A program made the translations under genes and the position numbers. The notes beneath the pieces are model-generated. The model was given only the letters and a program-made list of their open reading frames with translations, was not told the origin of the DNA and made no database searches. A stretch of 48,841 bases of DNA from positions 1 to 48,841 of the forward strand of contig DASRGZ010000133.1 of assembly GCA_035650735.1 (NCBI GenBank), written 5' to 3'. Positions 1,311-8,826 of the stretch are shown piece after piece. Source of the stretch: Chthonomonadaceae bacterium. Its GTDB lineage: Bacteria > Armatimonadota > Chthonomonadetes > Chthonomonadales > Chthonomonadaceae. Position 1 is the stretch's first letter, and the number at the start of each line of letters is the position of its first letter.

Positions 1311-3995
1311 ATGAGGAAGAACGTCATCTACGCTCTGCTGATGCTGGCCTTCTGGCTCGCTCCATGCCAACTGAAGGCCGCCCCAAGCCGAATCGCGCGG
1401 ATTGGGAGCAGCGCCCGGATAGACCTGGACAAGGGATGCTGGATCCAATCCTCCGTGAAGGTGCCGGAGAAGGGCGACGTCATCTCAACCAGCCAGTTTC
1501 AACCCCACGGCTGGTATTCCGCCCATGTCCCTGCGACGGTACTGTCGGCCCTCGTAGCGAATAAGGTCTATCCCGATCCCTACGCCAGCATGAATCTCCG
1601 CTCGATTCCGGGAACCAGCTACCCCATCGGCCAGAACTTCTCCAATAGCCCTATGCCGCCGGACAGCCCGTTTGCCGTGTCGTGGTGGTATCGCCCACAA
1701 TTTAGACTTCCGGCGTCGGTGAAGGGCAAAAGGCTCTGGCTGCACTTTGACGGCATCAACTACCGGGCCAATATCTGGCTGAATGGGCATTCGGTGGCTA
1801 GCTCAGACCAGGTCGCAGGCATGTACCGCATGTTCGAGCTCGACATCACGGACCTGGCCCTGACCGGCGACGTCAATACGCTTGCCGTCGAGGTCTTTCC
1901 ACCGACGCCGACCGATCTTTCGATCACCTTCGTGGATTGGAATCCCCTGCCGCCCGATAAGGACATGGGGCTTGTGCGCGACGTCTATCTCCTGACCAGC
2001 GGCCCGGTGGCGGTGCGCAATACACAGGTGATCACCAAACTGGACACGCCTTCGGAAGGAGCTTTGCTTACCCTTGCCACCGACCTGCGGAATGCGACAG
2101 GTCGGGCCGTCGTGGGGACGCTCAGGGCCGTCGTCGGAAACATCGTCCTGGCGCGCAAAGTGCGGTTAGCTCCCCGCCAGGCGGCGCGGGTGGAGCTCAC
2201 GCCGGCAGATTATCCGCAACTCCATATCTCGCATCCGAAGCTGTGGTGGCCCTATCCGTTCGGCCCGCAGACTCTCTATCGCCTGCGCATGGAATTTGAG
2301 ACCGGCGGGCAAGTTTCCGACCGGCAGGAGGTCCGATTCGGCATTCGCGAGATCACCTCCGAGATCGATTCCCAACAGCACCGCCTCTTCAAGATCAACG
2401 GCAAGCCGATCCTGATCCGGGGCGGCGGGTGGACGCCCGATATGATGCTTCGCTTCTCGCCGGAACGCGAGGAGAACGAGCTGCGCTACGTCCGCGACAT
2501 GCACCTGAACACCATCCGTCTCGAAGGCAAGATGATGAACGATCACTTTTTTGAGACGTGTGATCGGTACGGAATCCTGGTAATGGCGGGCTGGTGCTGC
2601 TGCTCGTATTGGGAGCGATGGAGATTCTGGAAGCCTATAGACTACACCATCGCCGGTGAATCGCTGCGGGATCAAGTTCGCCGTCTGCGCAATCATCCTT
2701 GCCTGCTGGCCTGGCTCTACGGCAGCGATAATTCTCCCACCCCGGAAGCAGAGGCGGTTTACCTGAAGGTCCTGCAAGAGGAGCACTGGCCCAATCCCTA
2801 CGTGTCCTCCGCCGCCGAGCGGACCACCGTGGGCGCTGGGCCGACCGGAGTCAAGATGACCGGGCCTTACGACTACGTCGCCCCGAGTTACTGGCTGCTC
2901 GATCAGTACCGAGGCGGCGCGTTCGGATTTAATACCGAGACCAGTCCGGGACCTGCTATTCCGGAGATGGCGAGCCTACTTGAGATGCTGCCCAGGGAAC
3001 ATCTCTGGCCCATAGACGAGTTCTGGAACTTTCATGCGGGCGGCGGCGGGTATCGGAATGTCCAGAACTTCACCGATGCGCTGGAGGGCCGCTATGGGAA
3101 AGCCAGAAGCCTGGAGGATTACGTCAAGAAAAGCCAGCTTATGACCTATGAGGGCGAGCGCGCTATGTTTGAAGCCTTCGGTCGGAATAAATACACGGCC
3201 ACCGGAGTCATTCAGTGGATGATCAACAACGCTTGGCCTTCCTTGATCTGGCACCTCTATGACTACTATCTGCGGCCCGGCGGAGGCTACTTCGGCACGA
3301 AGAAGGCCTGTGAGCCCTTGCACGTGCAATACTCTTATGACGACCGCTCGATTGTCGTCGTCAATTCTTACTACCGCGCCTTTCCAGGCTACAAAGTGAC
3401 CGCCAGGGTCTATAACTTTGACCTCACCGAGAAGTTCTCGAAGGATGCGGCGGTGGATATTGCCCCGGATAGCTCCACGCGAGTCCTTGCGATTCCCGAC
3501 CTGTACGGGCTTTCTCGCGTCTATTTCATTCGGCTCACCTTGCAAGACGAGGCTGGAAAACCGGTCAGCTCGAATTTTTATTGGCTTTCCACGCAGCCGG
3601 ATATTACCGACTGGTACGCCGCAAACGGGCACCACACGCCTATCCAATCGTATGCGGACCTTACGGACCTGGAGAAACTGCCGGAGGTAACGGTCACAAT
3701 TACCTCCCGGTCGGAGCGCCGGGGCGCGGCTCAGATCGAGCACATGACGGTAGAGAATCCGACCTCCCATCTCGCCTTTTGCGTCCACCTGCGCGTGACG
3801 AAGGGCAAGGACGGGGCCGACATCGCGCCGGTCTTCTGGGAGGACAACTATTTTGAGTTGATGCCGGGGGAAAAGCGCGAAATTACAGCGACCTATCCGC
3901 GCAAGCTGCTCGGCAGTGCCCGACCCTTTATCCAGGTGGAGGGATGGAATGTAGCGCCCGCTTCGATATCCCGGTTCTTCCCTCATCGTTCGTAG
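1311..3995 (+). CDS. GH2 glycoside hydrolase, exo-beta-D-glucosaminidase (CsxA-like), secreted
   Basis: Signal peptide; FDGINYRANIWLNG, IRGGGWTPD, IRLEGK, WLYGSD, GFNTETSPG, WHLYDYYL motifs. Confidence 0.85.
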   Translation: MRKNVIYALLMLAFWLAPCQLKAAPSRIARIGSSARIDLDKGCWIQSSVKVPEKGDVISTSQFQPHGWYSAHVPATVLSALVANKVYPDPYASMNLRSIPGTSYPIGQNFSNSPMPPDSPFAVSWWYRPQFRLPASVKGKRLWLHFDGINYRANIWLNGHSVASSDQVAGMYRMFELDITDLALTGDVNTLAVEVFPPTPTDLSITFVDWNPLPPDKDMGLVRDVYLLTSGPVAVRNTQVITKLDTPSEGALLTLATDLRNATGRAVVGTLRAVVGNIVLARKVRLAPRQAARVELTPADYPQLHISHPKLWWPYPFGPQTLYRLRMEFETGGQVSDRQEVRFGIREITSEIDSQQHRLFKINGKPILIRGGGWTPDMMLRFSPEREENELRYVRDMHLNTIRLEGKMMNDHFFETCDRYGILVMAGWCCCSYWERWRFWKPIDYTIAGESLRDQVRRLRNHPCLLAWLYGSDNSPTPEAEAVYLKVLQEEHWPNPYVSSAAERTTVGAGPTGVKMTGPYDYVAPSYWLLDQYRGGAFGFNTETSPGPAIPEMASLLEMLPREHLWPIDEFWNFHAGGGGYRNVQNFTDALEGRYGKARSLEDYVKKSQLMTYEGERAMFEAFGRNKYTATGVIQWMINNAWPSLIWHLYDYYLRPGGGYFGTKKACEPLHVQYSYDDRSIVVVNSYYRAFPGYKVTARVYNFDLTEKFSKDAAVDIAPDSSTRVLAIPDLYGLSRVYFIRLTLQDEAGKPVSSNFYWLSTQPDITDWYAANGHHTPIQSYADLTDLEKLPEVTVTITSRSERRGAAQIEHMTVENPTSHLAFCVHLRVTKGKDGADIAPVFWEDNYFELMPGEKREITATYPRKLLGSARPFIQVEGWNVAPASISRFFPHRS

Positions 3996-4000
3996 GAGCA

Positions 4001-5470
4001 ATGCCCATGCCTTCGCTTTCGCAACCATCCTTCGATTCGCAAGCCCTGGATGCGCTCGTCCGGGCTGCCATGGAGGCGTGCCAGGTTCCCGGCGCGTCCG
4101 TCGGCATCGTTCACGGCGAGGAGGTCGTCTATCTCAAGGGGTTCGGCGTCAAAGAGGCGGGCAAGGAGGACGAAGTTACGCCGGATACCCTGTTCGCCAT
4201 CGGCTCGACCACCAAAGCGTTCACCACGACCGCAATTGCAATGCTGGTGGACGACGGCAAGATGGCCTGGGATGACCCGGTGCGCAAGCATATTCCGTTC
4301 TTCCGGCTGTCCGACCCGCTGGCAGATGCGAACGTGACGCTGCGCGATCTGGTGACCCATCGCACCGGCGTTAGCCGCCACGACCTGCTCTGGTATGGCT
4401 CCTCCCTGGATCGCGAGGAGATTCTACGGCGTATTGGGCTGGTCAAGCCCAACACTTCCTTCCGCTCGACCTGGGAATATAACAACATCATGTACCTTGC
4501 CGCCGGGGTCGCCATCGGGAAGGCTAGCGGGGGCACCTGGGAAGCGTTCCTTCAGCAGCGCATCCTGGACCCGCTGGGAATGACCGGAGCCTGCTTTAGC
4601 GTCAAGGACGTGCAGCAAGCGCCCGACCGCGCTACCCCGCACGAAAAGGACAAGGAGAAGAACCTCAAGACCGTTCCCTGGCGCAACCTGGACAACGTGG
4701 CCCCGGCAGGTTCCATCAACTCTGGAGCGCGCGACCTGACCAAATGGGTGCGGTTCAACTTAGGAGACGGCACCTTTGCGGGCAAGCGGCTGCTCTCCGC
4801 CGCCAGGCTGGCCGAGTTGCACACGCCGCAGATGGTCGTGGGCCGGGATGAGCAGGCGCGAGCCTGGGAGCCGGAGACCAATATGACCAGCTACGCGCTC
4901 GGCTGGGGCGTGCAGGACTACCACGGCCTCCTGATGGTCCATCACGGCGGCGGCATTGATGGGATGCGCGCGCAGATCAGCCTGATCCCGGCGGCGAAGC
5001 TGGGCGTCATCATCCTGGCGAACGTGGGCAATACCTGGATGCCGGAGGCGCTGCGCAACAGCCTTCTCGATACCATCCTCGGCCTGCCGCAGCGGGACTG
5101 GAACACTCTCTATACCGAACTCGCCGATAAAATGGAGGCCGAGGAAAAGAAGAAAGAAGCCGAGCGGGATGCGAAACGCCACAAGGACACGCGGCCTTCC
5201 CGCGAGCCTGCCGCCTATACCGGAGCTTACGAAGAGCCTGCCTATGGGACGGCCCGCGTCTCGCTGGAAAATGGCTCTCTCGTGGTGCAGTGGAACTGCT
5301 TTCACCTCCCGCTCGAACATTTCCACTTCGATACCTTCCTGGCGAAGAAAGACGATCCCCCGCGCGTCAATGAGCTGGTGGCCTTCACGCTGGATGCCAA
5401 CGGCGATGTGGATACCATGATAGTCCTGGGTATCGAATTCAAGAAGGCCAAGCCCAACCCTGGTGATTAG
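4001..5470 (+). CDS. Serine hydrolase, beta-lactamase/AmpC-like family with C-terminal DUF3471-like domain
   Basis: SxxK (GSTTK), YxN (EYNN), HHGG triad; C-terminal YTGAYEEPAYG; AGGAG RBS. Confidence 0.85.
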   Translation: MPMPSLSQPSFDSQALDALVRAAMEACQVPGASVGIVHGEEVVYLKGFGVKEAGKEDEVTPDTLFAIGSTTKAFTTTAIAMLVDDGKMAWDDPVRKHIPFFRLSDPLADANVTLRDLVTHRTGVSRHDLLWYGSSLDREEILRRIGLVKPNTSFRSTWEYNNIMYLAAGVAIGKASGGTWEAFLQQRILDPLGMTGACFSVKDVQQAPDRATPHEKDKEKNLKTVPWRNLDNVAPAGSINSGARDLTKWVRFNLGDGTFAGKRLLSAARLAELHTPQMVVGRDEQARAWEPETNMTSYALGWGVQDYHGLLMVHHGGGIDGMRAQISLIPAAKLGVIILANVGNTWMPEALRNSLLDTILGLPQRDWNTLYTELADKMEAEEKKKEAERDAKRHKDTRPSREPAAYTGAYEEPAYGTARVSLENGSLVVQWNCFHLPLEHFHFDTFLAKKDDPPRVNELVAFTLDANGDVDTMIVLGIEFKKAKPNPGD

Positions 5471-5656
5471 AATCCACAGATTACACCGATTAAAAAACAA
5501 AGACAAAAGCCTTTGGACAGGATGAACAGGATTTACAGGATTACACAAAGGCAGAGAAGCAAGGCTTGTCCGTGTGGTTGAAATCCGGTTCCTCCCGTTA
5601 ATCCTATCTAAAATCGTGTCTTTTTCGGTGTTAATCGGTGTAATCTGTGGATTCTA
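5468..5656. repeat. Nested palindromic intergenic element
   Basis: Perfect 26-bp inverted repeat 5468-5493 / 5631-5656 enclosing a second imperfect IR (ACAGGATGAACAGGATTTACAGGATT ... AATCC...AATCCTATCT) homologous to 38731-38822. Confidence 0.85.
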
Positions 5657-5744
5657 TCGGGCAATTTGTGAAAAAAGGTTCAAAGGGAAGCGTGTGAACC
5701 TGGCACTTAATAATGAAAACATCTCTGGCGGGAGTTCACACCGA

Positions 5745-7364
5745 ATGGAATTGGGGACACTGGTCTCTCGAATCAGGGCGGGCGATATCTGCGCGTTCAC
5801 CGAACTGGTGCGGCGCTATCAGGATATGGCTTTCGGCTATGCGTTTTCTATCCTGCATGACTTTCAGCTTGCCGAAGACGCCGCCCAGGAAGCCTTCCTC
5901 GCCGTCTATGCCGATCTAGGCGCTCTGGCGGCGCCGGAAGCGTTTCCCGGCTGGCTGCGCGGGATCGTCCGGCATCAGTGTCAGCGGATTCTGCGCAAGC
6001 GACGGCTGCGCGTCGTTCCGCTGGCGCAGGCGCGCGACATGGCGGAGTCGGCGCCGGGGCCGGAGCGGCAGGCAGAGCGGAAGGAGATGCAGGAGCGCGT
6101 TCTAGCCGCCATCCGTGCGCTGCCCCGAGCGGAGCGCGAGGTGACAACCCTGTACTACATCCAGGAGTACTCCCAGCAGGAGATCGCCGCGTTTCTGGAG
6201 GTGCCGGTTTCCAAGGTCAATAACCGGCTGCACGCGGCGCGCGCCAGACTGAAACGGAGGATGCTTCCCATGGTGAAAGAGACCTTTCAAGAACACGCCC
6301 TGCCGGAGGATTTCGCGGAGAGAGTCGGCAGGATCGTGCAGGTGCAGGGGCCGCTTGTGGACGCGCAGTTCGCGCCCGAAAAACTGCCGGCTGTCTTCAG
6401 CGCACTGACCGTCCAGGACCCGGCGCACAAGCAGCCGGTTACGGTGGAGGTCGCGCAGCATCTTGGCAACGGTGTGGTGCGCTGCATCGCTCTCGCTCCC
6501 GCCGCCGGGCTGAAGCAGGGCATGGAGATCATCAATACCGGCGCTCCGGCCAGCCAGCCGGTCGCTTCGGAGACACTACATCAACTTGCCCAGGCGCTGG
6601 GCAAGGAGCGCACGGAGAAGCCGGAACTGCTGGAAACGGGAATCAAGGCGCTCGATCTGCTCTGCCCCTATGCCCGTGGCGGCAAGGTCGGGCTGTTTGC
6701 GGAGTGGGGACTGGGGCTGCTGGTTCTCATCCCGGAGATCATCCACAATATCGCCACACACCAACCGGGCGTTTGGCTGTTCACCTTCGTGCAGCCGATG
6801 GCAAACCCGAAGGACTGGCAGCAGGTGACGGCTGAGATCGCCGTGCCGGAGGGAGAGATACAGACGATCTATATTCCCACCGCCGACCCTAACGATCCCG
6901 TTATCCCCGCGCAGTTTGATTTTCTGGACGCCAGAACGTACCTGGCCCGCCATCGGGCGCGGCAGCGTCTCTATCCCGCGATAGACCCGCTGCGCTCAAA
7001 CTCGCGCCTGCTTGACCCGGCCCTTGTCGGCCAGGAGCATGTGGAGGTGGCGAACGGCGTCCGGCAGCTTTTGCAGCGCTGCCAGGAGCTACAGCCGCAC
7101 CTGGAATCCACCGGCAGGGAAGCGCTCTCGGAAGAGGAAAAGACGCTGGCGGCGCGCGGCCGTCGGGTAGAGCGCTTCCTGACGCAGCCGTTCTTTGTCG
7201 CCGCGCCCTTTACCGGTGTGCCGGGCCAGTATGTGCCCGTCCAGGAAACCGTGCGGGACTTCAAGGCGCTGCTCGCCGGGGAGTACGACGCCCTGCCGGA
7301 AGAGGCGTTCCTCTATTGCGGCACGCTGGCCCAGGTCGTCGAAAAGGCGAATGCCGCCCGGTAG
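5745..7364 (+). CDS. ECF sigma-70 factor fused to a degenerate F1-ATP synthase beta-subunit (AtpD-like) domain
   Basis: Residues 1-~172 carry sigma2 (AEDAAQEAF, FPGWL) and sigma4 (YSQQEIAAFLEVPVSKVNNRLHAARARL). From ~195 on: GRIVQVQGPLVD, EVAQHLG, LETGIKALDLLCPYARGGKVGLF, YPAIDPLRSNSRLLDP, RFLTQPFFVA..FTG.PGQYV, GEYDALPEEAF. Confidence 0.9.
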   Translation: MELGTLVSRIRAGDICAFTELVRRYQDMAFGYAFSILHDFQLAEDAAQEAFLAVYADLGALAAPEAFPGWLRGIVRHQCQRILRKRRLRVVPLAQARDMAESAPGPERQAERKEMQERVLAAIRALPRAEREVTTLYYIQEYSQQEIAAFLEVPVSKVNNRLHAARARLKRRMLPMVKETFQEHALPEDFAERVGRIVQVQGPLVDAQFAPEKLPAVFSALTVQDPAHKQPVTVEVAQHLGNGVVRCIALAPAAGLKQGMEIINTGAPASQPVASETLHQLAQALGKERTEKPELLETGIKALDLLCPYARGGKVGLFAEWGLGLLVLIPEIIHNIATHQPGVWLFTFVQPMANPKDWQQVTAEIAVPEGEIQTIYIPTADPNDPVIPAQFDFLDARTYLARHRARQRLYPAIDPLRSNSRLLDPALVGQEHVEVANGVRQLLQRCQELQPHLESTGREALSEEEKTLAARGRRVERFLTQPFFVAAPFTGVPGQYVPVQETVRDFKALLAGEYDALPEEAFLYCGTLAQVVEKANAAR

Positions 7365-7431
7365 AGCTTGCCGGCTGGCGCCGGCGTCGCTCAACGGCTT
7401 GCACGGGCGCGATGGGCGGCGCTCCCCTTTG

Positions 7432-7461
7432 TTGACGCCGAAGCGAACCAGGTGCTATACT
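7432..7461 (+). promoter_or_regulatory. Sigma70-type promoter of ndk
   Basis: TTGACG-18-TATACT with extended -10 TG. Confidence 0.6.
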
Positions 7462-7537: not shown

Positions 7538-7954
7538 ATGGAGCGGACTTTTGTCATGGTCAAGCCGGACGGCGTACAGCGCCGACTGGTGGGGGAGATC
7601 ATCCGCCGCTTTGAGACGCGCGGGCTGCGGTTGGTCGGCTTGAAGCTGTTGCAGCCGTGCCGGGATCTGGCCGAGGCGCACTACGCCGTGCATCGCGAGA
7701 AGCCCTTCTACGGCGAGTTGGTCGGCTTCATCACCTCCGGGCCGGTCGTGGCGATGGTCTGGGAGGGCAACGAGGCGATCCGGCTGTGCCGGAACATGAT
7801 CGGGGCGCTCAAGCCGGTGGAGGCGCAGCCTGGCACCATTCGCGGCGACTTCACGACGGAGGTACAGACCAACCTTGTGCATGGCTCCGATGCGCCGGAG
7901 ACCGCGCAAAGCGAGATCGCGCTCTGGTTTCGCCCGGAGGAACTGCTGTCCTGA
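7538..7954 (+). CDS. ndk: Nucleoside diphosphate kinase
   Basis: [36 protein letters not shown]. Confidence 0.97.
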
Positions 7955-8022: not shown

Positions 8023-8826
8023 CTAACGGCTCTCTGCGGAGCGGCGGCTTATCGGCTGCCAGGCGCGGCTGACTTCGGCCCCGCGCCCATCGCCCTTATA
8101 GCCGCGCTGCTCGCTCAGGCTTACCCAGAGTAGGATAAACGTGCCCAGGCCCACCACGCAGCAAAAGATCAGGTGCAGCCCGGACATAAAGCCCGGGCCG
8201 ATTGGATCGGCAGCCGTCCGCAGTATCTCGGTGTCGCCGGTGGCGTAGGCTTCATTCTGGGCGAACTCCTGGCCTGTCGTGGCCCAGACCGCCGCACCCA
8301 GCAGACCATAGAGGAACAGCGCGATATAGCTCCACACCAGCGCCGTGCGTCGGTTGCTGCTGTAGCGTGAGCAGGTCATGCCCAGCAGCACGTACAGGCT
8401 CGCCGACAGCAGCAGCTTGAGCGTCACGGTGATCATCCACCAGCCCGGCTCCGCCGCCCAGCGGGAGCCTTCGCGCAGCAGCATTAGCAGCATCGCCGGC
8501 ACGCAGGAGAACACCGCCAGCCCGACGAGCAGCAGAGAGGCGCAGAACTTACCGATAACCACCTGCGCGTTGGTCAGGCGGGTCAGGTAGAGGTCTTGCC
8601 AGGTCTGCTGCTCATATTCTTTGGCGAAGGCGCCGGCGGCAAACGGAGGCACGATCAGGGGCAGCGCGAAGGCGGGAATCCAGGATAGCGGATAACGCGC
8701 CAGCCCGGCGAACTGGGACAGCCAGATAAGCAGCGCCGTCACCAGCGCCCACAGGCCGATAGCCAGCAGTGGTTTACGGCGAAAAAGGCTCTGGCGGAGT
8801 TCGTTCAAAAAGACCGGGTTTTCCAT
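8023..8826 (-). CDS. ABC-2 type transporter permease-like membrane protein
   Basis: NPVFLNELR N-terminus, AGAFAKEYEQQTWQDLYLTRL..QVVIGK, several TM segments. Confidence 0.75.
   Translation of the reverse strand: MENPVFLNELRQSLFRRKPLLAIGLWALVTALLIWLSQFAGLARYPLSWIPAFALPLIVPPFAAGAFAKEYEQQTWQDLYLTRLTNAQVVIGKFCASLLLVGLAVFSCVPAMLLMLLREGSRWAAEPGWWMITVTLKLLLSASLYVLLGMTCSRYSSNRRTALVWSYIALFLYGLLGAAVWATTGQEFAQNEAYATGDTEILRTAADPIGPGFMSGLHLIFCCVVGLGTFILLWVSLSEQRGYKGDGRGAEVSRAWQPISRRSAESR

Follow-up and report, generated by a model that had tools for sequence, protein, structure and literature searches.

What does a piece of an ATP synthase do at the end of a transcription factor? The question is raised by a gene in a contig of a Chthonomonadaceae bacterium (GenBank assembly GCA_035650735.1, contig DASRGZ010000133.1), the whole 48,841-nucleotide stretch of which is referred to here as the window. 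In a single reading frame, the gene encodes an extracytoplasmic function (ECF) sigma factor followed by a region resembling the beta subunit of F1-ATPase (AtpD), which is called the module below. The answer towards which the evidence inclines, albeit not strongly, is that the protein is a working ECF sigma factor with its control built in, a pseudo-subunit descended from F1-ATPase beta serving as sensor or regulator, and that it is probably autoregulated.

The longest open reading frame (ORF) of the locus begins at a GTG, and the favoured product, of 539 amino acids, begins at an internal ATG (Table 1). This ATG is likely to be the translation start; it was chosen because a relative from the same bacterial family begins at the equivalent MEL, and because the codons before it overlap a repeat element (the first 57 codons of the long ORF overlap a palindromic repeat of 189 bp). 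The sigma part of this product is intact. Its regions 2 and 4 match their Pfam profiles at nearly full length, the ECF model TIGR02937 (NCBIfam; cut-off 42.9 bits) is matched with 95.5 bits, and solved ECF sigma chains match residues 6-181. Having sigma2 and sigma4 as its only sigma domains and a superfamily model above cut-off, the protein falls in group 4 (ECF), and its C-terminal extension of about 350 residues far exceeds the 50 that define the extended class. Neither a SnoaL nor a TPR domain was found in the protein by Pfam, which sets it apart from ECF41, ECF56 and ECF42 by their extensions.

The module is unambiguously derived from a beta subunit. The atpD model TIGR01039 is its top non-sigma match (317.3 bits in three stretches, below the cut-off of 462.85), and the F1 beta chain 2qe7_D aligns to it at E 4.9e-89 in three pieces (query residues 194-294 to 3-102, 287-349 to 119-181, and 371-536 to 295-460). 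Because the E-values reach 1e-89, the resemblance is not a matter of chance. Pfam places ATP-synt_ab_N at residues 197-266, ATP-synt_ab at 372-420 (profile positions 165-213 of 213 only) and ATP-synt_VA_C at 428-512. The genome also encodes a canonical AtpD, on contig C204 (465 amino acids, 834 bits), followed by an ORF in the atpC position, the family of which was not scanned. By BLASTP, the module is 44% identical to this AtpD over residues 195-349 and 51% identical over residues 372-537 (166 amino acids); the barrel aligns from AtpD residue 4 onward, and its strands occupy residues 194-268 in the structure model.

Relative to the genome's AtpD, the module has lost two stretches. The first, of 24 residues, follows the barrel. 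The second comprises AtpD residues 183-296 (114 residues, with the GERTRE motif and the Walker B segment DVLLFVDN) and is replaced by 22 residues. The Walker A sequence, GGAGLGKT in AtpD, reads AEWGLGLL in the window protein and does not conform to GxxxxGK[TS]. With the catalytic Glu/Arg segment and Walker B deleted and the P-loop degenerate, the module is judged from its sequence to be incapable of hydrolysing ATP. A preliminary description of the locus had read it as an intact ECF sigma factor fused to a shortened beta derivative unable to catalyse, with the N-terminal barrel and C-terminal helical domain kept, and the domain scans and the AtpD alignment agree with it on each of these points. 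It had correctly located AEWGLGLL and EALSEEE, had called for a separate canonical atpD in the genome, which is present, and had placed the gene outside any atp operon; the neighbours are indeed a beta-lactamase-family gene and, downstream, ndk. The deletion of GERTRE and Walker B that it reported was borne out as well; it had implied this deletion only, and the 24-residue loss is a second one.

The full-length structure model has a predicted local distance difference test score (pLDDT) of 90.2 and a predicted TM-score (pTM) of 0.74. Only the linker between sigma2 and sigma4 (residues 88-102) is disordered, and the remnant of the nucleotide-binding domain reaches pLDDT values of 81-99 in ten-residue blocks. 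The pTM would exceed what the 350-residue module alone could give. Foldseek matches the model to F1 beta chains at E 2e-30, with TM-scores of 0.38-0.47 and a root-mean-square deviation of about 13 Å, values that refer to the whole chain, including the sigma part. A complex prediction between the sigma part (residues 1-180) and the module (residues 190-539) scored 0.00; it was run without controls and counts neither way.

A fusion of this kind could be an artefact, either a chimeric assembly or a neutral fusion with a decaying atpD pseudogene. Assembled run contigs from three studies cover positions 5650-7450, and a fourth covers the locus from 5717, all without a single difference from the window, with the proviso that some of these runs may be the window's own source. 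None of the listed data sets carrying the region is an RNA data set. Relatives, here the best 120 of the database matches listed, are 488-627 amino acids long, 41-70% identical to the window protein over 94-100% of its length, and all combine sigma and ATP-synt domains in an open frame. Only a few bear a name, either sigma-70 family factor or 'ATP synthase beta chain', and these come from Chloroflexota groups and from Chthonomonadaceae; an ESM Atlas cluster of such proteins counts 139. One protein named as Chthonomonadaceae is identical to that encoded by genome G809, which makes this family the probable one for the window's genome as well. The catalytic core of AtpD is spanned by none of the 120. 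A strict boundary rule identified the same replacement in 93 of them, a median of 115 AtpD residues giving way to a median of 23, and the other 27 align in two pieces with blurred edges.

The module is moreover under purifying selection, as far as can be gauged. In comparisons of seven genes, the proportion of nonsynonymous differences in the module (pN) was below that of synonymous differences (pS) in all 21 pairs, with ratios of 0.31-0.60, a rough measure given that synonymous sites are near saturation (module pS 0.57-0.71). Mean identity to the window protein over 119 relatives is 0.65 in sigma2 (residues 17-88), 0.60 in sigma4 (106-172) and 0.43-0.49 in the beta parts. The segment of 22 residues that replaces the core is the least conserved, at 0.13, which is, with the rarity of the protein among the genomes searched, what an artefact or fossil might be expected to show. 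Against such an origin stand the identical junction DNA, the shared deletion boundaries, the selection on the module and the confidently predicted fold, and it is scarcely credible. The preliminary description had named a unique or chimeric fusion, and neutral evolution of an AtpD part whose deletion leaves sigma activity unchanged, as grounds for abandoning its reading; the fusion is neither unique nor chimeric, and the AtpD part does not look neutral.

Conservation within the family shows what has been kept. The stretches ETGIKxxDLLCP, YPAIDP..S.SR and RFLTQPFFVAE are near-invariant, and 25 of the 60 AtpD columns that are near-invariant outside the large deletion retain their residue in 80% or more of the short modules, with the best retention (9 of 12) in the C-terminal domain. 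Selection maintains the barrel, the reduced nucleotide-binding fold and the C-terminal bundle. The preliminary description had proposed to check that homologs share both the loss of Walker A and the deletion. The core deletion is indeed shared by the homologs; the loss of Walker A is not family-wide, as the P-loop lysine is kept in 83 of the 120 relatives and the glycine before it in all of them. The threonine of GKT is present in only nine, its Mg-binding position being hydrophobic in most, and it is the small clade of the window protein (P0001-P0006) that is distinguished by complete loss (AEWG[LVI]G).

The retained lysine and glycine raise the possibility that the module is a nucleotide sensor, the reduced beta fold binding ATP or ADP without hydrolysis and sigma activity following the energy charge of the cell. 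Residue 410 is aromatic (Y, W or F) in 119 of the 120 relatives and QPFF at 481-484 is conserved; these positions would form the adenine pocket of beta. The window's clade, however, has neither the lysine nor GxxxxGK, the threonine is a rarity, Walker B and about half of the nucleotide-binding domain are gone, and the conserved motifs may be purely structural. A role as nucleotide sensor is therefore considered very unlikely.

The module is not confined to sigma factors. A module-only search of 1.84 billion cluster representatives returned, besides fusions, proteins of about 350-370 amino acids that align to the module in one piece and, because of this, share its core deletion. The N-termini of four such free short betas (P0147, P0187, P0188 and P0215; 351-370 amino acids) are unlike the linker of the fusion. 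A further form, found twice in the window's bacterial family (genomes G379 and G811), has two membrane helices and a small conserved domain, joined to the module by a proline-rich linker, and lacks a sigma domain; its copies lie at L114 (contig G379:C602, a frame ending at 8484 and identical to P0154, 582 amino acids) and L117 (G811:C151), and both carry the AEWG-type P-loop. The small anchor domain has no Pfam match; a Ycf4-like lead from a protein atlas (0.92) is unconfirmed. One other protein, P0148 (358 amino acids), is AtpD-like with an intact GGAGVGKT and a different internal deletion of about 100 residues, and may represent either an error of assembly or gene calling or a beta that was shortened independently.

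The relationship between these forms was examined in a maximum-likelihood tree built quickly from 77 rows (every third of the 120 relatives, giving 40 fusions, with seven free modules, two anchored ones and 28 canonical AtpD). All 28 canonical rows fall on one side of a branch with 100% support and all short modules on the other, which is consistent with a single origin of the short module. The window protein and P0004 are sister to P0188, P0147 and the two anchored forms (98% support), and the AEWG-type P-loop is common to them. Free and anchored modules are nested among the fusions, and the architectures have therefore changed more than once. The shortened beta is thus a protein family of its own, with free, membrane-anchored and sigma-fused members.

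The sigma part, for its part, has relatives that bear other cargo (loci in Table 1). In the non-ankyrin fusions the sigma parts are 46-54% identical to that of the window protein. Four loci in the window's phylum, two of which were scanned with Pfam, carry cargo resembling the catalytic core of PheRS alpha (sigma parts 50-54% identical); further cargo comprises GNAT domains (one of them with DUF3471), a ClpX zinc finger and HEAT repeats, and one fusion is unassigned. Ankyrin cargo occurs in more distant sigma relatives (36-40% identical). The linker of the window protein is well conserved among the 120 relatives (L186 in 89, P187 in 91, F190 in 92 and A191 in 91), and in the PheRS-like, ClpX zinc-finger, HEAT and unassigned fusions sigma4 is likewise followed by M-V-x-[DE]-x-L and then by a loose LPxDF-like motif. 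This motif is clear in four of the nine sequences compared; the GNAT fusions have a looser stretch without LPxDF. The comparison covered the non-ankyrin fusions, and the ankyrin fusions have no such linker methionine. As the linker is shared by relatives with other cargo, it is to be counted as part of the sigma half, to which one cargo or another can be attached, in keeping with a modular 'sigma plus sensor' design.

The nature of the cargo suggests another function for the fusion, namely that of an integrated decoy: the pseudo-beta would capture an attacker of ATP synthase (for instance a natural-product inhibitor, a toxin or a phage protein) and the sigma factor would launch a countermeasure, the sister sigmas doing likewise for their own cargo. 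Several of those sisters, on the same linker, do carry parts of essential or drug-related proteins (the PheRS alpha core, the ClpX zinc finger, GNAT), and the patchy distribution of the fusion would suit a defensive role. A beta-lactamase-family (PF00144) hydrolase gene adjoins the fusion in two of seven loci, the window and L034 (8596-10026, where it overlaps the stop of the fusion), and the window's hydrolase ends in DUF3471, the domain that also ends a relative's sigma-GNAT fusion (L041, 6983-8791). This link may be functional or due to chance, and it is missing in the other five loci. No PADLOC model matched the fusion, the module in its free and anchored forms, or three neighbours; cargo such as HEAT and ankyrin repeats does not mimic a target; and no ligand is known. 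A decoy is accordingly rated as decidedly unlikely.

The linker contains a further feature that bears on how the module might work. A GGAGG stands 9 nucleotides before the ATG of Met176, and Met176 is present in 106 of the 120 relatives. The two codons beneath the GGAGG encode RR (57 relatives), GG (18), ER (16), GD (5), EG (4) and others, pairs that are chemically unlike and without exception purine-rich. Predicted pairing with the anti-Shine-Dalgarno sequence was stronger at the internal site than at the annotated start in six of six genes (-7.9 to -12.1 against -4.6 to -9.3 kcal/mol), and in two of the six the internal site was the strongest anti-Shine-Dalgarno window of the whole gene. In addition, six cluster representatives start exactly at Met176. 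Translation may on this evidence start at Met176.

If so, the gene would have two products, and the free short beta from Met176 could pair with the fused module as an anti-sigma factor or competitor; in other genomes, the same role would fall to a short beta that has its own gene or a membrane anchor. The nesting of free and anchored modules among the fusions, with the window's clade as their sister, is in keeping with such partner switching. On the other hand, relatives with other cargo share the K/R/E-rich stretch and the methionine, which may point to a protein-level motif that merely resembles a Shine-Dalgarno sequence; the six database proteins could be due to truncated contigs, on which gene-calling programs tend to choose such starts; and no genome searched has both the fusion and a free or anchored module. 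We regard this arrangement as quite improbable.

The upstream DNA of the gene bears on autoregulation. A gap-free AAAG[GC]-N15-GGCAC[CT]T motif lies upstream of all eight family loci for which upstream DNA is available, ending 20-40 nucleotides before the start codon. With a matrix built from the eight remaining sites, the window's site scores 27.3 bits, the top value in the genome of 6.5 Mb; the next is 18.9, and the maxima at eight wrong spacings are 18.0-21.3. The second half of the motif fits neither the sigma70 -10 consensus, as its own last position is rarely T, nor the sigma54 -12 consensus, as there is no TTGC. The simplest reading is that the motif would be the promoter of the ECF sigma factor itself, i.e., that the gene is subject to positive autoregulation. 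A ninth copy of the motif was observed at L034 (4671-4921), together with a look-alike of the first codons of the sigma gene. It precedes an ORF of 68 amino acids that overlaps the start of a methyltransferase gene, and an opposite-strand ORF of 459 amino acids lies between the copy and the sigma gene; the extra copy looks like a partial duplication.

Taken as a sigma factor with a built-in regulator, the protein could work as follows. The C-terminal extensions of ECF41 and ECF42 control how the sigma core engages RNA polymerase. In a comparable way, the linker and module would set whether sigma2 and sigma4 engage the polymerase, and a partner or ligand on the beta-like surfaces would shift the availability of the sigma factor. 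The latter would then read AAAGS-N15-GGCACYT promoters, comprising that of its own gene (positive autoregulation) and a small further set of targets. Control within the molecule, like the nature of the signal, is something we infer. As for the partner, the favoured candidate is one of the F1 subunits in normal contact with beta (alpha, gamma or epsilon), albeit a doubtful one. The preliminary description had proposed that the module could dock on F1 alpha or gamma and couple the state of ATP synthase to transcription, a proposal that the evidence neither supports nor refutes.

A wider reading takes in the sister sigmas. The sigma clade would be a surveillance system of integrated pseudo-subunits, in which one chassis carries inactive machine parts that report on assembly state or on attackers. 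The short beta from Met176 may then be an anti-sigma factor or competitor acting in trans, and the free and anchored short betas may be the same partner encoded separately. The whole of this scheme, including the product in trans, is thought unlikely.

Several observations weigh against the module being the sigma factor's regulator, or against parts of that reading. The module exists without a sigma domain, alone or membrane-anchored, which implies a role in its own right, not necessarily that of controlling a sigma factor. Any contact between sigma part and module is presumptive. DELSEED is the gamma-contact loop of F1 beta; the preliminary description had it retained as EALSEEE, which holds for the window protein, and in the family it is kept only loosely, as x-x-L-[ST]-x-E-[ED]. 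The upstream motif could belong to another regulator, and no regulon emerged: besides the gene's own site, matrix scores across the genome do not exceed those at control spacings, a loose pattern was not enriched at the 15-nucleotide spacing (28 matches, against 17-48 at other spacings), and no match of 14 bits or more lies on contigs with atpD or an atpA-like gene. The 28 loose matches form no coherent gene set.

The distribution is also sparse. The fusion occurs in three of 68 genomes of the window's order, with an anchored module in two more, and a genome of the same genus (89% complete) has neither. A sample of 401 genomes of the window's phylum yielded a full-length fusion only in the window's own genome, and 400 other genomes of the phylum of a Chloroflexi relative gave no match at E 1e-70; in both samples three candidates were scored per genome, so that copies may be missed. 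A single-protein locus scan found one full-length locus among ten, and an alignment scan of metagenomes found at least three among the best 80. With these points counted, the built-in regulator is still the reading that we put first. The occurrence of the module without a sigma factor, and of unrelated cargo on sister sigmas, points beyond the single protein to a more general built-in-sensor design.

Table 1. Features of the sigma-beta fusion gene and its surroundings. Positions refer to the window unless a locus is named.
Feature	Position	Strand	Basis or detail
Beta-lactamase-family (PF00144) gene	3944-5470		ends in DUF3471
Palindromic element, 189 bp	5468-5656		two 93-nucleotide arms
Long ORF from first GTG	5574-7364	+	
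Bipartite promoter-like motif	5682-5714	+	AAAGG 5682-5686, 15-nucleotide spacer, GGCACTTAATAAT 5702-5714
Shine-Dalgarno GGGAG (5730-5734) and ATG (5745-5747)	5730-5747	+	sequence read; relatives start equivalently
Sigma region 2, residues 21-87	5805-6005	+	Pfam PF04542 Sigma70_r2, E 2.1e-11, profile 1-69/71
Sigma region 4, residues 117-169	6093-6251	+	Pfam PF08281 Sigma70_r4_2, E 1.9e-12, profile 2-54/54
Internal Shine-Dalgarno-like GGAGG (6256-6260) and in-frame Met176 ATG (6270-6272)	6256-6272	+	9 nucleotides apart
Linker, residues 173-193, helix then LPEDFAER	6261-6323	+	helix 173-183 in structure model
F1-beta N-terminal beta-barrel ('crown'), residues 194-270	6324-6554	+	Pfam PF02874, E 5.6e-15, profile 1-69/69
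Nucleotide-binding domain remnant, residues 295-424	6627-7016	+	alignment pieces against AtpD and F1 beta chains
Degenerate Walker A AEWGLGLL	6699-6722	+	alignment to AtpD GGAGLGKT
Segment of 22 residues replacing 114 of AtpD	6792-6857	+	alignment to AtpD
F1-beta C-terminal helical domain, residues 425-539, and stop codon	7017-7364	+	Pfam PF22919, E 1.6e-09
DELSEED remnant EALSEEE	7119-7139	+	within C-terminal helical domain
Weak hairpin	7405-7424		
Sigma70-like promoter	7432-7461		TTGACG-18-TATACT with TG, 10/12 consensus matches
ndk	7538-7954		downstream of fusion gene
Other-cargo fusion loci	L020-L023, L024/L025, L037, L038, L039, L041, L042, L044; L011-L017		

The neighbourhood of the gene offered little further guidance. 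No gene neighbour is conserved across seven loci, and no anti-sigma Pfam family was found among their 39 neighbouring ORFs, those without any Pfam match being able to hide one. Co-transcription with ndk was considered and is not supported, since a sigma70-like promoter and a weak hairpin lie between the two genes; ndk probably has its own promoter, judging by this arrangement. The palindrome between the beta-lactamase-family gene and the sigma gene has arms that are 72% complementary, with perfect ends of 24 bp, and gives 70 matches in the genome at E ≤0.001, on many contigs and many of them on both strands. It looks like a repeat of the miniature inverted-repeat transposable element type.

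If the pseudo-beta reads the state of F1, its inhibitors or nucleotides, it would provide a direct and genetically simple link from the cell's energy machine to transcription, and a new example of a pseudo-enzyme in a signalling role. Research on ATP synthase gains in the short beta a natural 'minimal beta', and the shared linker with its swappable cargo hints at a general rule for designing one-protein sensors, of possible use in synthetic biology.

How does the fusion compare with known systems? With AtpD, the module shares homology, colinearity, the barrel and the C-terminal bundle; it differs in scoring below the family cut-off, in its deletions of 24 and 114 residues, in its degenerate Walker A, in being fused to a sigma factor and in lying outside an atp operon. 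F1 alpha and the B subunits of V/A-type ATPases have the alpha/beta ATPase fold without catalysis, in a structural or regulatory role, and are thus a precedent for a fold that loses catalysis and keeps such a role. They retain the whole nucleotide-binding domain within an ATPase ring, whereas the module has lost about a quarter of beta.

Among sigma factors, ECF proteins with built-in regulators are known, none of which, to our knowledge, is built from an ATP synthase subunit. No description of a sigma-pseudo-F1-beta fusion was found in the literature, including the accessible parts of PMC7826278, PMC7671368 and PMC8999054, in line with the preliminary description, which knew of no characterisation of the architecture. 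An 'ATP synthase' extension does not appear in the main text of PMC7826278 or in the available part of its supplement, and later group descriptions could mention one. In those parts of that source (Casas-Pastor et al. 2021), ECF41 (SnoaL-like), ECF42 (TPR), ECF56 and ECF238/CorE (Cys-rich) are ECF sigma factors with fused C-terminal regulatory extensions, each type of which clusters with one ECF group or with neighbouring groups. Like these, the window protein has a sigma2-sigma4 core, a long C-terminal domain presumed to exert control and no adjacent anti-sigma gene; unlike them, it has an F1-beta pseudo-enzyme as its extension, on a linker (LPxDFAxR) that is shared with many unrelated cargos. 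The fusion therefore belongs with the ECF factors that have their regulator built in, a class already known, to which the short-beta family, the upstream motif and the candidate internal start are added here.

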